From the IMG/VR virus record IMGVR_UViG_2579778804_000007, positions 1 through 34,195 of that record: a stretch of 34,195 bases of DNA. The stretch is one strand, 5' to 3'. The notes under the pieces were generated by a model. That model was not told the DNA's origin, did not search any database, and saw only the letters and a program-made list of their open reading frames with translations. Both the position numbers and the translations under genes were made by a program. Of the stretch, positions 1,033 through 14,794 are shown in pieces (position 1 is the stretch's first letter; the number at the start of each line of letters is the position of its first letter). Origin of the DNA: a virus (taxonomy: Duplodnaviria; Heunggongvirae; Uroviricota; Caudoviricetes).

Positions 1033-1600
1033 CGGATGACGTGGCTGTTTTTCCTTCCCCTTCGCCATCCTTTTTCGGAGCAGTTGTGCAAAAGTGTGCA
1101 AAAGTGATTTTTGCTGCCACTCCCCGCCAGGCCGCGCCAGTTCTGGCTTTCCAGATTTTTTCGTTTTCGTCGTCGGATCCTTTTTCAGATCTTCGATCGT
1201 GACGTAATTTTAAAAATCTCTTGTTATTCAGTGCATTAAAATTTTTCGGGATCCTCAGAAAGCCGGAGTTTTTGCACACTTTTGCAAAACCTTGCACAAA
1301 GTGCAAAACCATTCAGAAGGGAAAACCTCAGTAATGGCGCGCCCTGGAGGGGTGTTTTGCACCCCTTTCGATTTGCAAAATTTATCGTACACAAATACCG
1401 GAGGCGTGTGCGGGGTAGCGCCGATTACGTCACTTTACGCGTTACGTCGCCCCCGAAAATTTCCTGCCATTTGCGGCGATTTTGGGGCGCAGAAATCGTT
1501 TTCTGATGTCAGGGGATCGAATCGGGCTGTCGGGGTTATCTCTTCGTTACGTGGCGTTACGTGACGTTTTACGCGGGGATTACGTGGGGCGTTTCGTCCA
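1010..1600. repeat. Non-coding array of short direct and inverted repeats: about 10 copies of TTACGT(G/C) in clusters (about 1012-1045, 1196-1206, 1425-1450, 1545-1590) interleaved with GTGCAAAAG direct repeats and TTGCAC-N3-GTGCAA inverted repeats (about 1085-1110, 1270-1312, 1355-1385)
   Basis: Repeats seen directly; ORFs called here (1007..1312 minus, 1282..1564 plus) look non-protein-like. Function unknown. Confidence 0.5.
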
Positions 1601-1667
1601 TCTTTTTTTCTGCTGCGGGCGGTTTTTTCGTGGTGGGTGATGTCCGGTGATGAATATTTTTTATTGT

Positions 1668-1700
1668 CGGGGGAATAAAAAAGGCCACATTGCGCGGCCT
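1668..1700 (-). terminator. Rho-independent terminator of the phage late (tail) operon
   Basis: On minus strand: AGGCC-gcgcaatgt-GGCCT hairpin followed by TTTTTTATT, just past the stop of the last tail gene at 1715. Confidence 0.4.
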
Positions 1701-1714
1701 GTTAAAGTGAATGA

Positions 1715-3388
1715 TTATTCGATTATTGGTGAATATTTATTTTTAAGCTGGCGGCACTCCTGAGCGACCTGGCTGAACTGTGCGGCCTGCGGAGACGTGC
1801 CCGTTTTGGGGTGGGTATGTGATGCTGTAATATCTGCCAGCTCTTCCACCACATCGGCAAGGTCCGTCAGCATGGTCAGTACATTAATGCCCTCGTTTCC
1901 CAGCTTCACCGTATCGCCAACCAGCTTCTGCGCCAGCGCAATACTGTGACGGACGCCCTTAATCTTTTCGGTAAGGCTGCCGCCCACGGTGTCCAGTGTG
2001 TCGCCTTCCACGTCGCGCTCACAGGTACCGGCAACCACCATCATGTGCCCGCCCGTGCTGATGCTGTAGTTCTCTTCAGTGATATGGGTGACCGCGCCAG
2101 CCTGAAGCGTGGATACGCCCAGGACGGTGGTTGTGTCGGTTGCCTGTATGGTGGTCTCCCGGCTGGTCAGGCTCCGCATTTCCTCGTCTGCGCTCACCAC
2201 GCGCTCGCGTGATCTCTCCTGTATCCGCTGGTCTGTCTGGCGCTCCCAGTCTCCGGCGACCGTCACGCGCTGCGATACGCCGTCGCGCTGTTGCTGCAAC
2301 TGCTCGCCCGGCTTCACGTCGGGCAGATTGTGGCCCTCTGCCATTATCTGGCGGATGAAGGGCTTATCCGCCCGGCCTTCCACAAATCCCACTTCCACCA
2401 GGGTTCCGGGTGGCGGGAACTGGAACATGCCGGACTCACTGCCCGCCATGGGAACGGGGAGGGGAACGGCGTTATAAACGGGCGTATCCGCTGCCGGGTT
2501 GCCGTTCTCGTCAAGCAGCTGGAGATTCACCGCGTAGCGGGGTCTGAACGGGTCGGCAATATTGCCCGCGCTGACGGCTTCGGTCGGCGCCTCAACACGT
2601 GCCAGTTTGGGCAGGTGAAGCCCTGATGCCAGTTCAGGGAAGGCCTTTTCAGCCTGGCGACGGAAAGGGGACTTCTGGAGGGGGGCGCCGGTGGCTTTAT
2701 TGCGTGGTGTCCACGTGATGGTCATGTTGTCATCTTCCAGCATGACCATCGTCAGGCGCTGACCGTTCACCTCCACACCCGGTCGCAGCGTCTGAATCAT
2801 CGGGAGGGTCATACTGTGCCCGCCCGTTGATGCCTGGCTGAACTCGTGCGGGATGGTGACGGGGCGACCGGAAAACATCCCCTGCGCGGCAGCAGCGGCC
2901 ATAATGCCGCCGTCCGGTAACGGATGCCAGATGTAATCCGGTACGGAGAAAATACGCCCCAGACTGGCCAGCAGTTCGTAGCCCGTGCCGCTGTGCGTGA
3001 AATGCGGAACGGGCCTGTCAGTGTAAGCCGCGTTGTCCGGCAGGATGATTTCCAGCCCGCTGGTCTCACTCAGCCACTGTGTGACCGTGCGCATTGTCGG
3101 GTGCTGAAATGAACAGGGGAAGGGGTGATCAAGGATCCCCGCCATTTCACGAATCAGAAGCCGTACCGAACCGTTTTCAGCGGGCTGGCTGCGTTCAACG
3201 TATCCGGTAAACCAGCGCACCAGGTCGTTTCCGTAGCCGATATCGAGACGAACGGGGCGCCCGGTGTAGTTCTGCTCTGTTCTGGCCGTGATAAATCCGC
3301 GTCCGCACGCGTTCAGCTCAAGCATGACGGAACAACTGACCAGCTGAATGGTGTCGTTACCCAGTAACAGACGTTTAGTGGGGTTCAT
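1715..3388 (-). CDS. Phage baseplate hub / central spike protein (gpD / VgrG-like), 557 aa
   Basis: Last gene of late operon; size and C-terminal H-x-H (SHTHP) motif resemble hub-spike proteins. Family assignment from memory only. Confidence 0.45.
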   Translation of the reverse strand: MNPTKRLLLGNDTIQLVSCSVMLELNACGRGFITARTEQNYTGRPVRLDIGYGNDLVRWFTGYVERSQPAENGSVRLLIREMAGILDHPFPCSFQHPTMRTVTQWLSETSGLEIILPDNAAYTDRPVPHFTHSGTGYELLASLGRIFSVPDYIWHPLPDGGIMAAAAAQGMFSGRPVTIPHEFSQASTGGHSMTLPMIQTLRPGVEVNGQRLTMVMLEDDNMTITWTPRNKATGAPLQKSPFRRQAEKAFPELASGLHLPKLARVEAPTEAVSAGNIADPFRPRYAVNLQLLDENGNPAADTPVYNAVPLPVPMAGSESGMFQFPPPGTLVEVGFVEGRADKPFIRQIMAEGHNLPDVKPGEQLQQQRDGVSQRVTVAGDWERQTDQRIQERSRERVVSADEEMRSLTSRETTIQATDTTTVLGVSTLQAGAVTHITEENYSISTGGHMMVVAGTCERDVEGDTLDTVGGSLTEKIKGVRHSIALAQKLVGDTVKLGNEGINVLTMLTDLADVVEELADITASHTHPKTGTSPQAAQFSQVAQECRQLKNKYSPIIE

Positions 3389-3390
3389 GG

Positions 3391-3933
3391 TTACTCCAGC
3401 GCATCATTGACGGGTTTGAGGACCTTTTCTTCGAACCAGGTCATTTTCTCCGGTGTTTCGTCGGCCACGGTCCCGCCTTTTGCGCCGGGCGTCTGCGGCG
3501 TCTGTTTACGGCTGCTGCCGGGGGTGGCGCGTGCCTGGCGTTTTTCCGGTACGCTTCGTCTTTCGCGTAATGTGAAGCTGACCTGCCAGGCGAGGCGGTC
3601 GGTCTGTTGCTGTGCGTCTATCTGCCCGGAAAATGTCCCTTCACGAAAGTTAATGGCGGCAGCGGTGGCGTTTGCGATACGGTAAACTTTCAGGGCACCG
3701 TCCCCGGTGGTGGCAGAGGCCAGCTGGAAAATGCGCTGAAGGGCCCGCTCATTGTCAAAGGTGATCATCCCGGTTACGCGAAGCTCTTTGGCCTTGATGC
3801 CCTGCTCGGCGTTCGCGGTGCTCGATGTCTGGCCGGACTGGTCCTTTTCCTGGAACTGCATCGAGGGTGAAATCACCATGTTCTGCATGAAAATACCCTC
3901 ACCATCAAGGGCGAGCAGTGCGGTCTGGCTCAT
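3391..3933 (-). CDS. Uncharacterised tail-module protein, 180 aa (possibly gpU-like)
   Basis: Abuts the hub gene and overlaps the upstream ORF; no motif recognised. Confidence 0.35.
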   Translation of the reverse strand: MSQTALLALDGEGIFMQNMVISPSMQFQEKDQSGQTSSTANAEQGIKAKELRVTGMITFDNERALQRIFQLASATTGDGALKVYRIANATAAAINFREGTFSGQIDAQQQTDRLAWQVSFTLRERRSVPEKRQARATPGSSRKQTPQTPGAKGGTVADETPEKMTWFEEKVLKPVNDALE

Positions 3934-4630
3934 GGATCATTTTCCCCAGTTCAGTTAATGAGTCTGCCGCCAGGAGTGCGGCCACGGTATGTACGGCGGT
4001 CGGAGCCGGGATATCCTTCACCATGGCCGCCGCTGCGGCGCGGTGATACCCCCGGTACTGAAATACCCAGGCCTGCGCCTTCTGTTCTGCCAGTGTTCTG
4101 ATCCCCTCTTCCAGTCCGGCAAGTGCGCCAGCCCGTCTGCTGATAAAGCGGCTTATCTGGCTGCGAAGCCCTGCGGCATCCGGGCGTTGTGCTGCCAGCT
4201 GCCTGGCCTGTGCTGCACGGGCGGCGCTGACTGCGTTGCGCATTGTGGCAACGGAAAGATGCACAGGTGCGGGCAGGGTGTCGGTGGTGATCGGGATTTG
4301 CATTTTGTCAGTGCTCAGACTGGCGGCAGCCTGTGCCATGCGCTGTGCCTGCGTGAATACCGGCACGGGCAGAACGGCGGTCAGTGCCGCCATTGACTGT
4401 ATAAAAAGATCGTGGGTGTTTTCGGCAATCATGATAATGGTCACGTCGCCGGATGCACGGCTTCCGGCCATTTTCCCGGCCAGCCAGTTTATGGCGTTCG
4501 GAGGGCTTAAATATACCCCCGATTCTTCATATCGTCCCAGCCCGTAAGTCCACGGTGTGACGGGGATGACGGAACAGCTCAGCGGGGGCATGTCAGCGCT
4601 GACGCTGATTGTTTTTCTTGTCCACGTCAT
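3905..4630 (-). CDS. Uncharacterised late-operon protein, 241 aa, Ala-rich
   Basis: GGAGG ribosome-binding site 4 nt before ATG, directly after the fibre-assembly gene; no family recognised. Confidence 0.35.
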   Translation of the reverse strand: MTWTRKTISVSADMPPLSCSVIPVTPWTYGLGRYEESGVYLSPPNAINWLAGKMAGSRASGDVTIIMIAENTHDLFIQSMAALTAVLPVPVFTQAQRMAQAAASLSTDKMQIPITTDTLPAPVHLSVATMRNAVSAARAAQARQLAAQRPDAAGLRSQISRFISRRAGALAGLEEGIRTLAEQKAQAWVFQYRGYHRAAAAAMVKDIPAPTAVHTVAALLAADSLTELGKMIHEPDRTARP

Positions 4631-4641
4631 GGTGCCTCCGG

Positions 4642-5238
4642 TCAGCCTGCGTGATGATCCGGCGAAGGGGATTCAGGCCAGACAATATCCGGCGCGTTGC
4701 CCGTGTCTGTCCGGCTCAGTAATACCCGGTATTTTTTCCACAGGGGAAGCAGGGCGCTTTCATCGTCGGTCGCCATATTTAAATCCACGGCATCCTGAAG
4801 GATGTTTATTGTATTTGTTGCCTCCTGTATTAATTTCCGTTTTTTATTCTCTGCCTCGCTTACCCGGTAAGCCTGTTCTGCCGCTTCATCCTTAACCCAT
4901 GATGAACCGTCCCAGCGGCAGAACTCCCCGTCCGGTTTTATCATGGTCACGTTTTCCGGTAACGGGCCCGGCTCAGTAATCAGTAAGGCGCTTCCCGACT
5001 CCAGACGCCAGACGGTTTTACCCCGGTGATCTTCCATGAGGTGCCAGGTGTTTTCATCCTCATCAAAGATAGCCACGTGTCCTTCAGGAATGTCAGGCGG
5101 GGCAATGTCCGTTGAGTGCGCAGGCAGTCCGGTATGCGGAGGGATCCATGCATCGCCTTCGCCGATAAATTCATTTGTTCCGGCTGACAGGTTGTAGATT
5201 TTAATTGTCTGCGGGTGTTCGCTCATTTTAAAGGTCAT
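4642..5238 (-). CDS. Tail fibre assembly protein (Tfa / P2 gpG-like)
   Basis: 198 aa; C-terminal [18 protein letters not shown] motif typical of Tfa chaperones; directly after the tail fibre gene. Confidence 0.75.
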
Positions 5239-7280
5239 TATGCAAGCCTCACGATGTAGTTAAATGCGATGTTTTTAACGGTGTTTTCGGCATTACCGGT
5301 GGGGTTAATGGTCAGGCCGTGACCATGTGAACCCAGTGCGATCGTGTGGGCGTGTTCGCCAATGGCTACCGAATGTGTGTGCCCCGGAAGGTTTACTGTC
5401 AGGTTTGCTCCGGAACCCGGTCCGTATGCGGTCCAGTCGCCGCTGCCTTCCGGTGACGCGGTGGCGGTTCTCAGTGCTATGTTTGCAGAGCCTGAACCCG
5501 CGCTTCCTGTTGTTTTTGTGCCGTAATTGAAGGATGAGGTCGTTTTCGTGCCAAGGTTAGTGTTTGAGACGCTCCCCCCGTGGGTGTGGGATTTGATACC
5601 GTCCTGCTCCTGTGACAATACCGCACGACCGCTGGCGGGTTTCCCCTTGATTGTCCAGCCGCGCATATCCGGGATGCGACCGTTCGGATAGGCTTTTGCC
5701 AGCAGGGGGTATTGCGCTTTATCGAATGTCTGCCCCACCATGATGGCGTAACCGTCAGGCGGGGTGTCTGACGGCCACGGAAAAGGAATACCAGCCGGTA
5801 ATGCCTCAGTTGCAGGCAGTGCGCCGATGTCCTGTGGTGTGGGTTTGTTTTTATCCGTGTAAGTGCGGTACCAGATGGGTTTTCTTCCCCGATCCAGTAT
5901 CACCCCGGTAAATTGTGCCCGGTGTTCTTTTGTGGTCGGATCTGAATCTTCCAGCCCGGTGGTGATCCTGACTATTCCGCCGATGAGTTCGCCAAACACT
6001 TCAATCAGGCAGCCACCCAGGCAGATATCGCCATACCCCGTGTCAGTAAGCACGCTGTGCTGTGACAGTGAAATATTGGCCCTTAATACCCAGCTCCCCG
6101 TTCTGAATGCACCGCGCTCATTCAGCCATTCCACGAACTGTTCTGTTGTCCAGCGTTGCCCTGCTTTACCCACGTATCCGTCAGCATCATAAACCCGGGG
6201 AGCACCGATGTTGATAATAAACAATTCCTTGTTGGGGATGTCCTCACCATTGCGGTTTTTCGCAAGCCGACCATCGGCGTTGTCCATGGCGATCTTTATA
6301 GCCTTTGGCGTGGCTGCCTGTGTCTCTGATGTACTGGTGGTGGCGCTGCTTAACTGTGTGAATCCCTTTTCTTTCAGTGTTGCGTCCGGGTGGTTGCGTG
6401 ACTTCTCGTGTTTTTTCAGAGCGTCCAGACTGCGGCGCTCCTCCGGGGTTCCTGTGGGACGAAGGTCGGTTACAGTGCCTTCTGCGTTGATGTCCGCAAG
6501 GGCTGTGACATAATGCTGAATACCGTTTTCCTGGTAATCTTTCAGCGAATCGGTCACCGTGATTTTGTGCTGAACCTCCCATTCACTGGTGAGCGTGCCG
6601 GTCCAGCATACATCCAGCCAGAGGCGGGCTGGACGGCGGGGGATACTGACGGGCTGGCTGACTGCCAGTTCGGCGCGTAAGCCCTGTACGTAGCCGTAAC
6701 CCTTATTCACCGTGTAGGTGTTGCCGCTTCTGGTGATCAGCCAGCCGTCACCGAAGAATGCAGCGTTACCGTAAATATCGATGTTTTCGCGGCGCTGGCG
6801 TTCGTCCATGGATGCCAGGCGTGCCGTGAAGTCTATCTGCCAGGTCTGCGCCGGGGTGGTGATACCTGTGGCTTCCTTCGCACCGCTGTACTCCATGAGC
6901 ATGGAACGGACCAGCACATTACCTTCGTTACCGTTGTGGGTTCTGATTTTTTTCTGTGTGGGGGCGTGAACAATCATGGCCAGCGTGCTGGTTGCTTTGC
7001 TGACCAGTCCCACCCAGTTAAATTCAAAATCACCCAGCTCTGCCCCCAGGGTGACCGAATAAACCACGGCATTCTCATTCACCACGCCGGTTTTACCAAC
7101 GGCCTGGCGGTGAACAATCTGATCTTCAGGCGGCAGGATTTCGTCGGGGGATACCGGTGTTTCCGGGTTGAGGTCCGGGACGTTTGCAAAAATAAACTCA
7201 TCCAGCACGACGGGGGTGCCTTCCGCCGCCTGCTGTGCCTTGAGCCGGATAAAGGCGCTGGTAATTACAGATTTCGCCAT
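5238..7280 (-). CDS. Tail fibre protein (P2 gpH-like), 680 aa
   Basis: Conserved fibre N-terminus ([40 protein letters not shown]), Gly/Ser/Thr-rich distal region with His-rich C-terminal repeats. Confidence 0.8.
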
Positions 7281-7866: not shown

Positions 7867-9028
7867 TCAGGGATTCGAGCCGTGGCACGGCCAGATCGCT
7901 GATGATGTCCTCCAGTGAAAACTGAACCGATGCCACCACCGGGAAGGTCTGATGAATTTCCTTGCCCAGCGTGGAAAACGAAAAGCGCGAATAGGGCCAG
8001 ACTTTTTTCACATTAAAGCGGGCGTTCTCCCGAAAAGCGCAGCGTATCAGGTCGCTGATATCCTGTTTCAGCCCGTCCACGCCGTCAGGTGGCAGGGTGG
8101 TTGTGCTTCTGACGTACACGGTGACGTCCAGAGTGTGGCTCGTCTCCGGCATGGCAAAACACTGTAAATCATCCCCGTGTCCGTGATGGCCCTCCTCGCT
8201 GATGTAACGGTTTACGGCCTCAATGAAAGGGGCGGATGCCTCGCCGCTGTCCAGCAAGAGGTAGGCGTTGGCTGTTCCCGGTCCTCTCGGAGCGTCGTGT
8301 TTAAAGTAGATCCGGTCGATGCTCAGGCCTGCCACGCTGGCGATAAGTCCCCGGTAGACGGCGTCCGTGTGGTAACTGCTCACGAGGTTAAACTGGTTGC
8401 GTATTCTGTCGCGCAGTTCGTCGTCGCTTTCCTCATCGGCACCCGGTACGGTCAGCCAGTCTTCCCGGTTCACCACGGATGCAATGCCGGGAATGGCAAC
8501 GGGAAGGATACGGAAGTACCCCGGCGCGAGGTTGTGCCCGCTGCCTTCGGTGGTGGCTTCCACGGGAACGGATGCGCCGCTTTTACCGCTGCTGATAAGC
8601 GTTTCTTCCGTGACGGTCATGCTGTATATCACGCCGTTAATTCTGGAGGTCTGGACGATGGTGCCTTCGGGGATGAGGACGTCATCATTTGCCCTGGTTT
8701 TGGCAAACCAGATCACGCCACTGGCCTTACTGGCCGGTTTTGGGGTGATGTTGACGTCGTGCGCATGAAGCAGAAGAAGTGACCGGTCAGCCGTGGCGAC
8801 AAACATACCGGGCAGCACAACGTCAACCAGCGCATCACGCAGCCACTGAACGGGTCGTATGACAATGGTCAGAATGAGCCGCCAGAAGGGACTCATGGGC
8901 GAGGTGTTGGTGATGAGTCCGGTTTTCTGTACATCCTCATGAAAGAGGGTGGCGATCTCTTCTTCTGTTTCCGGCATACCGCTTTCACGGAATACCTGAT
9001 TAAAATCAACGTCCGGTTTCCCTTTCAT
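7844..9028 (-). CDS. Baseplate J-like protein (P2 gpJ / Mu gp47 family)
   Basis: 394 aa; size and position typical of baseplate wedge J proteins. Confidence 0.7.
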   Translation of the reverse strand: MKGKPDVDFNQVFRESGMPETEEEIATLFHEDVQKTGLITNTSPMSPFWRLILTIVIRPVQWLRDALVDVVLPGMFVATADRSLLLLHAHDVNITPKPASKASGVIWFAKTRANDDVLIPEGTIVQTSRINGVIYSMTVTEETLISSGKSGASVPVEATTEGSGHNLAPGYFRILPVAIPGIASVVNREDWLTVPGADEESDDELRDRIRNQFNLVSSYHTDAVYRGLIASVAGLSIDRIYFKHDAPRGPGTANAYLLLDSGEASAPFIEAVNRYISEEGHHGHGDDLQCFAMPETSHTLDVTVYVRSTTTLPPDGVDGLKQDISDLIRCAFRENARFNVKKVWPYSRFSFSTLGKEIHQTFPVVASVQFSLEDIISDLAVPRLESLSVEVVIE

Positions 9029-9356
9029 AGTTCACCCTGGTGTTTATGCGTCCAAAATCCTGTGTCTCTGCCGTCACATGCAGCCTGCCCGGTGCCTCTT
9101 CGTTAATGAACACCGTCCCCGGAACCAGCCGTTCATCATCCTCAACCAGGAGGATAAGCCGGGTAATGATGTCGCTGCGCAGCGTCGGGCTGCGTTCGCC
9201 GATAAGCAGGGCGGCGATCCCGCTTTCGATAATGCTGTGCACCACGTCCTGGCCGATGCTGACCCGGTTATCACATCGCTGTGGCTCGTTGCCGCTGTTC
9301 AGCGTAAAACTGCCGTCAGTGATAAGCAGGTCGATGTAAAGCGATGGCGTGTTCAT
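9006..9356 (-). CDS. Small baseplate assembly protein (gpW / Mu gp46-like), about 116 aa
   Basis: Start taken as the ATG overlapping the tape-measure stop (ATGA coupling); the track's longer ORF starts at 9377. Family assignment weak. Confidence 0.4.
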   Translation of the reverse strand: MNTPSLYIDLLITDGSFTLNSGNEPQRCDNRVSIGQDVVHSIIESGIAALLIGERSPTLRSDIITRLILLVEDDERLVPGTVFINEEAPGRLHVTAETQDFGRINTRVNYERETGR

Positions 9357-11539
9357 CCCGCGTAAAGCTCCGTCCATTCATCCAGTTGCCCCGGCGTCAT
9401 CGGGTTCTGCGTGTTGATTGTCAGATTGCCGAACGTCCGGCTGTTGTCGATACGGGTTGAGGTGTCCGTGCGTATCTGGTTGCGTATGCCTCCGGGTGGC
9501 AGCTCTGCGCTGATGCGGTTGCCTGCCAGTACCGGGACGGCGGTTTCTGCAATCTGCGGAGGTACGGTGCTGCCTGTTGCGCCCCGCGTCATGGTGTTCA
9601 CCTGCTCCGTGGGCTTCATGTCGATACTGATACCGGGGATTTTGTTCAGCTTTTCCGCAAGCCAGTTCCACGTCCGGTTAAACGAGTTTTTAATGACGTT
9701 CCATAAGTCCCCGAAGACGTTACCGATGATCCCCGCCATTTTCCGGAAGGATTCGACCGGGGCAGTCGGGTCAAATGCAGCCACCACGTCCTGCCACCCT
9801 CTGATGACGATGGCGAAGATGTCGACCAGGGTTCTGATCACGCTGATAACCACCTCCAGCGCGGGGGATATCAGGCTTACCGCTGCGGCCACCACGCGAC
9901 CGCATGTTTCCCCGGCACGGGTGACGCTGTTCATCTGTCCCGTGGTCAGCTGTACCGGTGCAAACAGATCGGAGAAGGCACTGAACAGTGTTTTTATGCC
10001 CTGCCATACCGGGGTCAGCGCACGGGCAATGTCGCCGAACGCGGCAGTCACCGGGCTCATGGCGTCCAGTGCGCTGGTAAAACCATCAATAAAGCCGCGA
10101 ATAAAGGCTTTGACGGGCTGCCAGAACTTAATGGCCACCACCACCAGTGCGGCGATGGCGGCGGCAACCAGGAGGACCGGGGCGCTCATGGTCAGAAACG
10201 ACACGCCCGCCAGACGCGCGGCAAGACTGGTGGCAATGATGACGCTGCGTACTTTTGTGAGTGCGAGCGTGTACAGACCCCAGGCTGCCCTGGCGCCCTT
10301 TATGATGGCCTTATGGCCTTCCATGATGAAGCTGAACACACCCAGCACGATGTTCGTGACCGCACCGGCTGCGCCCAGCGCCAGCATGGTCAGCGTGATG
10401 TAACCCAGCCAGCGGGCGATGTTCGGGAACATGTTCAGCCAGCGCACGAACGTCGCGCCGATATCGGCAAAACGGCCAGCCAGTGGTGCGAGAATGGGGT
10501 AGAGGGCGTTACCGATGGCGGCCCGGATGTTGTAGAAGGAGGCCACAAGGCGGTCCCACGGGTCGGTCATGGCTTCCGCCATTTCCGTGGCACGCTTCAT
10601 GCCGTCATTACGCCCCAGCGCTGATATGCTCCGGTTAAGCATTTCCTGCTGTCCCCAGAGTTTTTTAATCACGTCCGCGCCACTGCCGAAGGCGTCATCC
10701 AGCGCCTGTTGTGCCGCCACGTTACCCTCAATGTTCCTGCCGAACCTCGCCTGCAGACGGTCGAGGATGTCACCCATGGGTAAAATCTTCCCGGTGGCAT
10801 CGACGAAACTCATCCCCATTTTTTGTGCGGCAGCGGGGGCACTGCGCAGGAACTCCTCATAGATGCCTGATGCCTCGGTACCCATGGTCCGTGACAGGGT
10901 GCCCAGTATGGCAAACTGCTCTGCCATGCTGACGCCAAAATCCGCGCCCGCGTTTTTGGTGCCCTCAATAAGCTCCTGCATGGTGCTCATTTCCACGCCG
11001 AACTGCTGAACCATCCACGCGGTTTTACCTGCCAGATCTTCAGCAAACCCCACGGCACCCATGGCAGAAAACTCACTGCGGAAACGGGCACCCATGGCGG
11101 CAAGGTAGCCGCTCGCCTCTTCGCTGCTGACGCGGGCAGCCACGGCCAGGGTGCTGGTTGCTGCCGTCACACGGGGTAAATCCCCGTCGCTCAGTCCGTC
11201 CAGTGCGCCGCGAATATGCCATGCGGAACGGATGATCTCCGTGGAAGACTGACCGAATGCGGTCCCCAGTTTCATGGCCTGCGTGGTGAGGGCGGTCAGC
11301 GCCTGCGCCCCGACGCCTTTGGCCTCAAGCTCGCCCAGCGCCTTCTGCATCTCCCACGCCGGATCCATCGCGGCGCGGATACCTTCAGCCACGCCCCACA
11401 GTCCGGCCACACCCACACCGATACGCGCGAACGCGCCCTGCGAGCGTTCGGCGAATCCCGTCACGGATTCCTGAACCTGCCGCAGCGGGCGGGTAAGCTG
11501 GTCTGTCAGATTGATAATGAAATCCAGCTGGCTGGCCAT
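9353..11539 (-). CDS. Tail tape measure protein, 728 aa
   Basis: Long Ala/Gly-rich protein with central hydrophobic segments, directly after the frameshifted chaperone gene. Confidence 0.8.
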   Translation of the reverse strand: MASQLDFIINLTDQLTRPLRQVQESVTGFAERSQGAFARIGVGVAGLWGVAEGIRAAMDPAWEMQKALGELEAKGVGAQALTALTTQAMKLGTAFGQSSTEIIRSAWHIRGALDGLSDGDLPRVTAATSTLAVAARVSSEEASGYLAAMGARFRSEFSAMGAVGFAEDLAGKTAWMVQQFGVEMSTMQELIEGTKNAGADFGVSMAEQFAILGTLSRTMGTEASGIYEEFLRSAPAAAQKMGMSFVDATGKILPMGDILDRLQARFGRNIEGNVAAQQALDDAFGSGADVIKKLWGQQEMLNRSISALGRNDGMKRATEMAEAMTDPWDRLVASFYNIRAAIGNALYPILAPLAGRFADIGATFVRWLNMFPNIARWLGYITLTMLALGAAGAVTNIVLGVFSFIMEGHKAIIKGARAAWGLYTLALTKVRSVIIATSLAARLAGVSFLTMSAPVLLVAAAIAALVVVAIKFWQPVKAFIRGFIDGFTSALDAMSPVTAAFGDIARALTPVWQGIKTLFSAFSDLFAPVQLTTGQMNSVTRAGETCGRVVAAAVSLISPALEVVISVIRTLVDIFAIVIRGWQDVVAAFDPTAPVESFRKMAGIIGNVFGDLWNVIKNSFNRTWNWLAEKLNKIPGISIDMKPTEQVNTMTRGATGSTVPPQIAETAVPVLAGNRISAELPPGGIRNQIRTDTSTRIDNSRTFGNLTINTQNPMTPGQLDEWTELYAG

Positions 11540-13185: not shown

Positions 13186-13677
13186 TCACCCCTTCAGATC
13201 GCGGGTGTCACGGGCTGACAGGTAGGGCACGCCGTCAATGCTGATAAAGTCCGGGCTTGTGACCATGAACTTGATTTTTTTCGTGGTCTTTCCGGCTTCG
13301 CCTGCGCTGATGTTCACCACGTCCGACAACATGGGGACGCAGCCGAATACCTCGATTTTTTCCTCCTCGCTGCCGTTGTTGGCATAAAAGAGAAAATCCT
13401 TTTCAGGAATGGCACGCCACGACCCCGCAGAGCGGGCCACGGCACCAAACTTTTTAAAGTTCTGCGCGTCGACTTCCACCTCCACATCGGCAGAAACAGA
13501 ACCACGGGTGTAGCCGTTCGGCACGCCGCGCGTCTGTGCCACGGCGCTGTTGTCGGTGATGGTGACGGTGGCGCTTTCCACGTGGATCATGATCCCGTCG
13601 TAGTTGATATCAAACGCGCCGCCGCTGATACGTTCATTTCCGGCCATGTCAGATCTCCAGTGCTGTGTCGAGTTCAA
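13186..13677 (-). CDS. Contractile tail tube protein
   Basis: 163 aa directly after the putative sheath gene; size and position fit a tail tube. Family not verified. Confidence 0.5.
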   Translation of the reverse strand: MNSTQHWRSDMAGNERISGGAFDINYDGIMIHVESATVTITDNSAVAQTRGVPNGYTRGSVSADVEVEVDAQNFKKFGAVARSAGSWRAIPEKDFLFYANNGSEEEKIEVFGCVPMLSDVVNISAGEAGKTTKKIKFMVTSPDFISIDGVPYLSARDTRDLKG

Positions 13678-14794
13678 TACTTACGCCAATGGCTTTTGCG
13701 CTCTCGTAGGGGCGTACCACAATGTAAATCTGCACGTGTGTACTGCTGGTCCAGACGATGGTGATATCCCCGTCCTGTGGCGGTTTAACCTCGCCGGGGA
13801 ACGGTACGCCGTTAATCTCCGTGGCGAGCGCCATTTCACGCAGCGTGCGGCTGAAATATGTCTGGCTGGCGGCAATGCTGCCCGGTGTGCTGTTGAGTGC
13901 GCGATCTGCAAGGCGGGCAATGGCGCGCAGACGTACACGGCGGGAGACTTTATCCACCACGCGCACGTTTTCGATGACCTGGTAATCGCCCCCCTCCACA
14001 TCAAGGGTGCGTCCGTCTGACCAGTAGAGCCCGTCGAAATCGTGATACCACATGGGCACGCTGAAGCGTTTGCCTTCCAGCGAGCGCAGCGTGGCCAGTT
14101 CAAGGGGCTGTTTCTTGCCGTCCTGCGGGATCTCATCGTTACCCATCGCCACCAGGGCACCGGTTGCCACACGTGCCGGACTGTCCGCAACGGTGACGGA
14201 AGGATTACAGAGACGGCCCGCCAGTACGCCGGGCTCATTTCCCCATAAGCGGGGAACCACCATCACGCCAGGTGCTGCCACGCCGTCCTGTATGGCACTG
14301 ATGCGGGTGACGTATGCCGCCCATGCTTCATCCCTGCCCGGTCCGGCCACGCACAGCATGAACCAGACAAAACGGCCATAAGCGGACTGAAGCAGGGCGC
14401 GGGTTTCGGTGGCGCGGTTAACGGCATCTTTAGCCGTGATGTCAATGGCAATCACCACGCCTTCGGCAGAAGCAATGGTCTGCGCTTTTTTCACCGCGTC
14501 CACCCATGCGGCGTTAGCGTCGCCGCCCTCCGGTGCCGGGGGTTTGGGTTCAGACAGAACGTGAACATAGGCAAACCAGTTCTGGCCACCGTTGGCGATT
14601 GCGGCGGTAAGCGTGGATTTAAGCAGGCTTTCATCCGGTCCCAGCACGTCGTCCAGGTCGGTCTCAGGGGAGACGGAAAGGGTGTTACCTGTGTTCTTTT
14701 TGCCATAGCCCACAAAAAGCAGCGTGCGCTCCACTTCACGGGTGGCACCGTTGAAACGGTTCTGATGGCTTACGGTTACATTCGGCCAGCTCAC
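13649..14794 (-). CDS. Contractile tail sheath protein
   Basis: 381 aa between tail completion genes and the tube gene; not P2 FI-like in sequence, so assigned by position and size. Confidence 0.5.
   Translation of the reverse strand: MSWPNVTVSHQNRFNGATREVERTLLFVGYGKKNTGNTLSVSPETDLDDVLGPDESLLKSTLTAAIANGGQNWFAYVHVLSEPKPPAPEGGDANAAWVDAVKKAQTIASAEGVVIAIDITAKDAVNRATETRALLQSAYGRFVWFMLCVAGPGRDEAWAAYVTRISAIQDGVAAPGVMVVPRLWGNEPGVLAGRLCNPSVTVADSPARVATGALVAMGNDEIPQDGKKQPLELATLRSLEGKRFSVPMWYHDFDGLYWSDGRTLDVEGGDYQVIENVRVVDKVSRRVRLRAIARLADRALNSTPGSIAASQTYFSRTLREMALATEINGVPFPGEVKPPQDGDITIVWTSSTHVQIYIVVRPYESAKAIGVSIELDTALEI

Follow-up and report, generated by a model that had tools for sequence, protein, structure and literature searches.

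What are the two small genes that separate the tail fiber-assembly gene from the baseplate hub gene in a prophage of Escherichia coli? We analyzed a 34,195-nucleotide stretch of Caudoviricetes DNA (IMG/VR record IMGVR_UViG_2579778804_000007, positions 1 to 34,195; here called the window), in which two overlapping open reading frames (ORFs) on the minus strand fill this slot: one for an alanine-rich protein of 241 amino acids (aa; positions 3905 to 4630) and one for a 180-aa protein (3391 to 3933). An initial annotation described both ORFs exactly as we find them, likened the slot to the accessory Z/fun locus of P2, and proposed that the products are either displaced tail components, such as gpU or gpV equivalents, or cargo. 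We argue that both are probably ordinary late tail-operon genes that, together with the adjoining 557-aa gene, encode the central baseplate, the 180-aa protein being the tube initiator and the 241-aa protein an accessory baseplate protein. The argument draws on family membership, synteny, operon structure, a predicted tube fold, the inheritance of the genes together with those of the baseplate, and the presence of a homolog in virions reported in the literature.

The window is a complete HP1-type prophage

The window is a complete Peduoviridae prophage of E. coli and is of the HP1 type, which is related to P2, rather than of the P2 type itself. Pfam scans of its large ORFs identified the P2-family head genes gpL, gpM, gpN, gpO, gpP, and gpQ, with portal, terminase, scaffold, capsid, and small terminase among the functions matched, together with gpR, a gpS-like protein, and the replication protein gpA. 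The tail and lysis genes include the sheath (DUF2586), the tube (Phage_HP1_Orf24), a holin, an M15 endolysin, a spanin, a tail chaperone, and the tape measure, and the remaining matches are to DUF2590, Baseplate_J, Tail_P2_I, the fiber, and Caudo_TAP. An integrase sits at the end of the window. Pfam still assigns DUF names to the sheath (13649 to 14794, DUF2586) and to the gene at the gpW, or sheath-initiator, position (9006 to 9377, DUF2590), a sign of how poor the annotation of HP1-type tail proteins is.

Both the lysis genes and the tape-measure gene come after those for sheath and tube, and three more genes follow the fiber module. This order is the same as that of orf27 to orf35 of the Haemophilus phage HP1 and differs from that of P2. 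At the 3′ end, the agreement with HP1 is gene for gene (fiber, assembly protein, orf33, orf34, orf35), with products of 258, 187, and 533 aa for the last three genes in HP1 versus 241, 180, and 557 aa here. Equivalents of the HP1 trio are found in K139 (orf37 to orf39), phiO18P (gp44 to gp46), YenM_324 (033 to 035), ESSI-2, and SI7/SW3, and the HP1-type systems show significant full-length homology to both the 241-aa and the 180-aa proteins. Because orf33-orf34-orf35 form a conserved 3′ end of the tail operon in HP1-type genomes, with sheath and tube upstream, the slot is not an accessory locus and the analogy to Z/fun of P2 fails.

HP1 infects Haemophilus, while the host here is E. coli, in which the prophage is rare: its nearest proteins come from E. 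coli (99% identity), its DNA was found in 12 of 5,426 complete E. coli genomes, beside serS, and a DNA search returned no deposited phage close to the window. In one of the 12 carriers, strain Bongo (locus L095, 8348 to 10414), the annotation breaks the tail-fiber gene into two pseudogene fragments, and this copy of the prophage is therefore probably defective. Just beyond the prophage end, the window holds a tandem duplication of ∼470 bp (212 to 541 and 685 to 1010, 91 to 96% identity), and in a near-identical RefSeq locus the interval from serS to the prophage contains three toxin genes of the Hok/Gef family.

Both genes are internal to the late tail operon

Both ORFs are real genes and not chance reading frames, as judged by a Shine-Dalgarno sequence before each, many homologs, and invariant columns in alignments of 45 to 46 sequences. 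The GGAGG of the 241-aa gene (4635 to 4639, minus strand) lies 4 nt before its ATG at 4630 and begins 2 nt past the stop codon of the fiber-assembly gene; GGGGAA precedes the ATG of the 180-aa gene at 3933. The end of the 241-aa gene overlaps the start of the 180-aa gene by 29 nt (3905 to 3933), an arrangement that probably couples their translation. The corresponding overlap measures 14 nt in HP1 and 35 nt in YenM_324, and the two genes overlap in all 80 IMG/VR loci of close relatives as well. On the other side, the ATG of the hub-spike gene (3388) stands only 2 nt beyond the stop codon of the 180-aa gene (3391), and the same succession of a 180-aa-type gene and a hub gene is seen in HP1, K139, phiO18P, PV94, ACA2, and others. 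An intrinsic terminator on the minus strand (1682 to 1700; an 8-bp stem with 5 GC pairs, then TTTTTATT) closes the operon 15 nt past the hub-spike stop codon; it is the sole strong terminator in the region from 1300 to 5400, and K139 has an annotated terminator at the equivalent place. No σ70-like promoter site was found in the same region. The tight junctions, the lack of a promoter, and a terminator that follows only the hub gene therefore place both genes inside the late tail operon.

This layout bears directly on the proposal that the two genes are accessory cargo (morons) serving, for example, lysogenic conversion or defense. The proposal rests on position, namely, a place after the fiber-assembly gene like that of Z/fun in P2, and it could accommodate a 241-aa protein that has no annotated function. 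The likeness to Z/fun ends with that place: Z/fun is a single 528-aa gene, non-essential and oppositely oriented, that is bounded by a terminator and the promoter of the F operon and has a regulatory region of its own, whereas the window has two co-transcribed genes of structural type, co-directional with and overlapping or abutting their neighbors. The pair is thus not Z/fun-like cargo, since it has no promoter or terminator of its own and PADLOC returned no credible match to a defense family. The GC content of both genes (0.59 to 0.60) is typical of the operon and like that of the hub gene, their synteny is kept across at least six host genera (from Haemophilus, Vibrio, Aeromonas, and Pseudomonas to enterobacteria), the pair is present in all 80 close relatives, and a tail-tube fold is predicted for the 180-aa protein. 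We regard the cargo proposal as highly improbable and effectively refuted.

The 180-aa protein is an HP1 orf34 homolog with a predicted tube fold

The initial annotation could place neither protein in a family; both in fact belong to catalogued ones. The 180-aa protein matches Pfam PF25759 (HP1_ORF34 baseplate complex protein) with 183 bits against a cutoff of 27 (E = 5.2e-54), and the match covers profile positions 3 to 175 of 180, i.e., the full model length. A search of word-filtered candidates from 90% identity clusters gave 224 matches at E ≤ 1e-3, all of which carry PF25759. A near-identical E. coli protein is named “baseplate complex protein” in RefSeq, and identity to the proteins of any deposited phage is 43 to 74%.

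An AlphaFold2 model built from 46 homologs has a confident core (pLDDT of ∼90 at residues 50 to 120) and consists of three β-strands, a long loop, a β-α-β-β-β-β unit, a disordered linker of ∼40 residues, and a C-terminal helix. The domain formed by residues 1 to 125 (3559 to 3933, minus strand) is predicted to adopt the tail-tube (Hcp-like) β-sandwich fold, the fold of tube initiators. When the model was used in a fold search, only tube, Hcp, and tube-initiator proteins were returned; the best matches were tube initiators and ripcords, including PA0626 of pyocin, with ordinary tube proteins and Hcp scoring below them. PDB sequence searches with the protein, by single sequence and by profile, gave nothing significant.

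Homologs of this protein carry GenBank product names that would make it an enzyme or a DNA-binding protein (YenM_324, PV94, SMHB1, PY3, phi3, and ValB1MD-2). We find such a function hardly credible: Pfam, NCBIfam, and PDB sequence searches revealed no glycosylase or DNA-binding domain, the fold search led to tube-related proteins exclusively, and Pfam and RefSeq agree on a baseplate complex protein. The misleading names are “adenine glycosylase,” “nucleoid DNA-binding protein,” and “DNA-binding protein,” and the mislabeled homologs lie in loci L001 (9701 to 10246), L005 (4998 to 5561), L088 (6001 to 6546), L087 (5995 to 6534), and L091 (6001 to 6474).

Two elements of the protein stand out by their conservation. 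The most conserved segment, residues 29 to 52 (KDQSGQTSSTANAEQGIKAKELR; 3778 to 3849, minus strand), has invariant or near-invariant family columns at positions 30 to 52, and its residues 30 to 46 have pLDDT values below 50 in the monomer model. By analogy to the tail-tube fold in general, this loop may become a long hairpin facing the lumen once six subunits assemble into a ring, and its disorder in the monomer would be in keeping with such a role. At the other end, a low-confidence linker (residues 127 to 163) precedes a predicted C-terminal helix (residues 166 to 178, W-F-E-x-K-V-L-K-P; 3400 to 3438, minus strand), in which W166, F167, E168, V171, L172, and P174 are invariant in the family. 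In the structure of P2, six gpU subunits sit on three gpD subunits and the C-terminal helix of gpU touches the gpJ/gpI triplex (bioRxiv 10.64898/2026.09.14.750843). The predicted 180-aa protein has the same domain layout as gpU, and its terminal helix may be the counterpart of that of gpU.

Is the 180-aa protein, then, the displaced gpU equivalent that had been suggested? Its predicted fold, its match to PA0626, and its Pfam name fit a gpU-like protein; the other half of that suggestion, a gpV equivalent, is not borne out, as neither protein resembles gpV and the gpV-like part lies inside the 557-aa gene. The gene order also differs, with gpU following the tape-measure gene in P2 and the 180-aa gene following the fiber module here. 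At the sequence level, none of the called genes scanned in the window has a product that reaches Pfam thresholds for the families of gpU, gpD, gpV, or gpX, the 180-aa protein has no match to PF06995 (Phage_P2_GpU) at E ≤ 0.1, and hhalign comparison of orf34 profiles with P2 gpU gave a probability below 1%, a weak test with a single sequence as the template. HHpred has linked gp47 of phage ACA1, an orf34 homolog, to HP1 orf34 and to PF06995 at 15% identity, a link marked “uncertain” by its authors, and gp47 was not detected in ACA1 virions by mass spectrometry (PMC10612066). Because we reproduced no sequence-level link to gpU, we limit our claim to a protein that works like gpU and do not make it a member of PF06995.

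Comparison with other tube initiators (P2 gpU, PA0626, the N-terminal domain of Mu gp43, and Pam3 gp17) further delimits the protein. PA0626, the 285-aa “ripcord” of pyocin R2, has a long helical ripcord domain that is absent from the 180-aa protein, and the initiators of extracellular contractile injection systems carry a LysM domain, which the 180-aa protein does not have. The tube itself is encoded by a separate gene of the window (Phage_HP1_Orf24). From the predicted fold, the gene position, and the lack of a rival candidate, we infer that six copies of the 180-aa protein assemble into a ring seated on the trimeric hub, below the first ring of the tube.

The adjoining gene encodes a putative hub-spike fusion

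Downstream of the pair lies a gene for a 557-aa protein of the HP1 orf35 family (1715 to 3388, minus strand), in which a gpD-like N-terminal part appears to be fused to a gpV-like OB/spike part. The protein matches PHROG 2258 (“baseplate protein,” E = 1e-241) and, at residues 25 to 128, PHROG 196 (“baseplate hub”); weak matches below the cutoffs are to the Phage_base_V OB domain at residues 310 to 345 (E = 0.0025) and to VgrG TIGR01646 (E = 0.0013). A PDB sequence search returned nothing significant, the best hits being Pvc8 and VgrG. By HHpred, the N-terminal part of HP1 orf35 has been related to P2 gpD and the C-terminal part to gpV (PMC10612066, Table S1). Our own hhalign comparisons of orf34, orf35, and DUF2590 profiles with single sequences of P2 gpU, gpD, gpV, and gpW were all negative; they are evidently insensitive, because they also missed the relationship between DUF2590 and gpW (the sheath initiator) that the ACA1 study reported from HHpred (PMC10612066).

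The hub-spike is a single gene in the window, HP1, K139, and phiO18P and is split into gpD-like and gpV-like genes in PV94, yong1, SMHB1, ACA2, UFJF_PfPro, and a Vibrio prophage (split loci: L005, 5558 to 6999; L086, 6553 to 7928; L088, 6543 to 7951; L092, 6547 to 7898; L093, 6477 to 8107; L094, 6543 to 8191). PV94, yong1, and the Vibrio prophage have an additional gene of ∼65 aa after the spike.

The 241-aa protein belongs to a modest family found in HP1-type phages

The 241-aa protein (18.3% Ala, pI 9.8) is a member of PHROG 1677 (E = 7.5e-59), listed as “function unknown,” and a full-length homolog of HP1 orf33 (hhalign probability of 99.5%, E = 4.6e-23, residues 2 to 235). It was also related to phiO18P gp44 (96.9%), and a broad profile of 78 orf33 sequences matched ACA2 gp46 (97.3%). 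It has no Pfam or NCBIfam family, and Pfam scans of 78 family members, like those of unusually long members, revealed no informative domain; a 1240-aa member proved to be an unrelated low-complexity match. Identity to the proteins of any deposited phage is 27 to 47%. The family is modest in size, since an exhaustive HMM search recovered 236 representatives among 1.84 billion 50% identity clusters. Structure prediction gave a medium-confidence AlphaFold2 model (pLDDT of 70.8, pTM of 0.66) with no meaningful fold match in the PDB and no known baseplate fold; PDB searches by single sequence and by profile likewise returned nothing significant.

Evidence that orf33 products are virion components comes from ACA1, whose gp46, judged to be an orf33 homolog by hhalign against the ACA2 copy (probability of 97.3%), was detected in virions with 2 spectra, 6% coverage, and 0.09 spectra/kDa, so that virion support for the family amounts to two spectra from one distant phage; the same data set gives comparable values of 0.08 spectra/kDa for gpW, 0.05 for gpJ, and 0.06 for gpV (PMC10612066, Table S2). 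The YenM_324 record labels its orf33 homolog “structural protein.” Literature searches on HP1 orf33/orf34 and on the proteomics of vB_YenM_324 led only to the ACA1/ACA2 paper. Homology to tail structural components is clear for the 180-aa protein and takes a weaker form for the 241-aa protein, that of a conserved family with one homolog in virions.

Among the close relatives, orf33 lies directly upstream of and overlaps orf34 in all 80 IMG/VR loci; among diverse HP1-type phages, it was found upstream of orf34 in 8 of 13. In the other five (PV94, yong1, C5a, SMHB1, and a Vibrio cyclitrophicus prophage), orf34 and orf35 are present but no orf33 homolog was detectable upstream, and therefore orf33 is not an indispensable core part. 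In three of the five (PV94, yong1, and C5a), the fiber gene abuts orf34 and there is no separate fiber chaperone. Neither the fibers of these three nor the small ORFs that SMHB1 and the Vibrio prophage carry were found to contain an orf33-like domain.

orf33 is inherited with the baseplate genes

Upstream of the 241-aa gene lie the tail fiber-assembly gene of the P2 gpG/lambda gpK type (4642 to 5238, minus strand; Caudo_TAP, E = 3.6e-38) and the tail-collar fiber gene (5238 to 7280). The assembly gene has a GC content of 0.52 versus about 0.60 for its neighbors, the DNA of the G/H junction is 78% identical to an unrelated phage, vB_EcoM-613R2, and gpG and the fiber C terminus can no longer be recognized in the majority of relatives that have retained orf33, orf34, and orf35. 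Together, the assembly gene and the fiber C terminus (4642 to 5500) look like a horizontally swapped fiber-tip cassette.

Does the 241-aa protein belong to this fiber module, perhaps as a second assembly factor or as an adaptor for fibers that require a chaperone, and not to the hub or wedge? Its gene directly follows the fiber-assembly gene, and in seven of the eight diverse orf33-bearing phages a small chaperone-like gene follows the fiber gene, with genes of the diversity-generating retroelement (DGR) of the receptor-binding protein at that place in ACA2. Conversely, PV94, yong1, and C5a have neither the chaperone gene nor orf33, and the close relatives ACA2 and C5a differ both in fiber type and in the presence of orf33, although this sample of phages is small and not phylogenetically independent. 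A database protein, P0272, even joins a Caudo_TAP fragment to the orf33 N terminus; that chimera is probably a gene-calling artifact. The ACA2 DGR, comprising an accessory variability determinant and a reverse transcriptase, occupies positions 3481 to 5096 of locus L093, between the receptor-binding gene and the orf33 homolog, which is without the N-terminal ∼60 residues.

The pattern of divergence speaks against a fiber function. Although orf33 evolves faster than its neighbors, the identity of the 241-aa protein to its relatives tracks that of gpJ (Spearman's rho of 0.91), orf34 (0.79), and orf35 (0.77), and not gpG or the fiber tip. In about 60 loci, orf33 is retained while gpG and the fiber C terminus have been replaced by sequences that are no longer recognizably related. 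At 0.60, its GC content agrees with the hub gene and not with gpG (0.52), and it overlaps orf34, not gpG. From co-inheritance and GC content, we conclude that orf33 moves with the baseplate backbone and not with the exchangeable fiber-tip cassette. We therefore consider a place in the fiber module, the main rival reading, unlikely; the 241-aa protein is most likely an accessory baseplate protein.

A model of the HP1-type central baseplate

Under the baseplate reading, six copies of the 180-aa protein would form the first ring atop a trimeric hub-spike made of the 557-aa gpD-gpV fusion, and this ring would serve as the template on which the tail tube polymerizes about the tape-measure protein, the job of gpU in P2. 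The long, conserved loop would face into the lumen of the tube, and the flexible linker would let the C-terminal helix extend to the wedge made of gpJ/gpI-like proteins. The 241-aa protein, made from the same transcript as orf34, would be a low-copy virion component that binds the complex of hub and tube initiator or ties that complex to the wedge or the fiber base.

In such a position, the 241-aa protein may fill the connector (“glue”) role played by the LysM protein gpX in P2 and by gp53 in T4, a functional analogy between low-copy baseplate proteins. No LysM domain of this kind was found, and it is because the window encodes no LysM protein that the role of gpX suggests itself for the 241-aa protein. 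Taken a step further, the orf33 family could be a baseplate protein peculiar to this lineage, with a fold so far absent from solved contractile tails, that replaces gpX between the hub/tube-initiator complex and the wedges; we put this forward tentatively, as a possible but somewhat doubtful extension of the model.

Significance

Both genes fall into families that are already catalogued in a known subgroup of phages, and Pfam and RefSeq have already given the 180-aa protein a correct name. The practical value of our findings is mostly in annotation: the 241-aa gene is still “hypothetical” in this rare E. coli prophage, homologs of the 180-aa protein are wrongly named, and recognizing orf33 and orf34 as HP1-type baseplate genes removes an apparent cargo locus. 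To our knowledge, no HP1-type baseplate structure has been solved. If the orf33 family, which numbers at least 236 clusters (50% identity), does take the place of the LysM glue known from P2, HP1-type baseplates would be built partly unlike those of P2, pyocin R2, and Mu.
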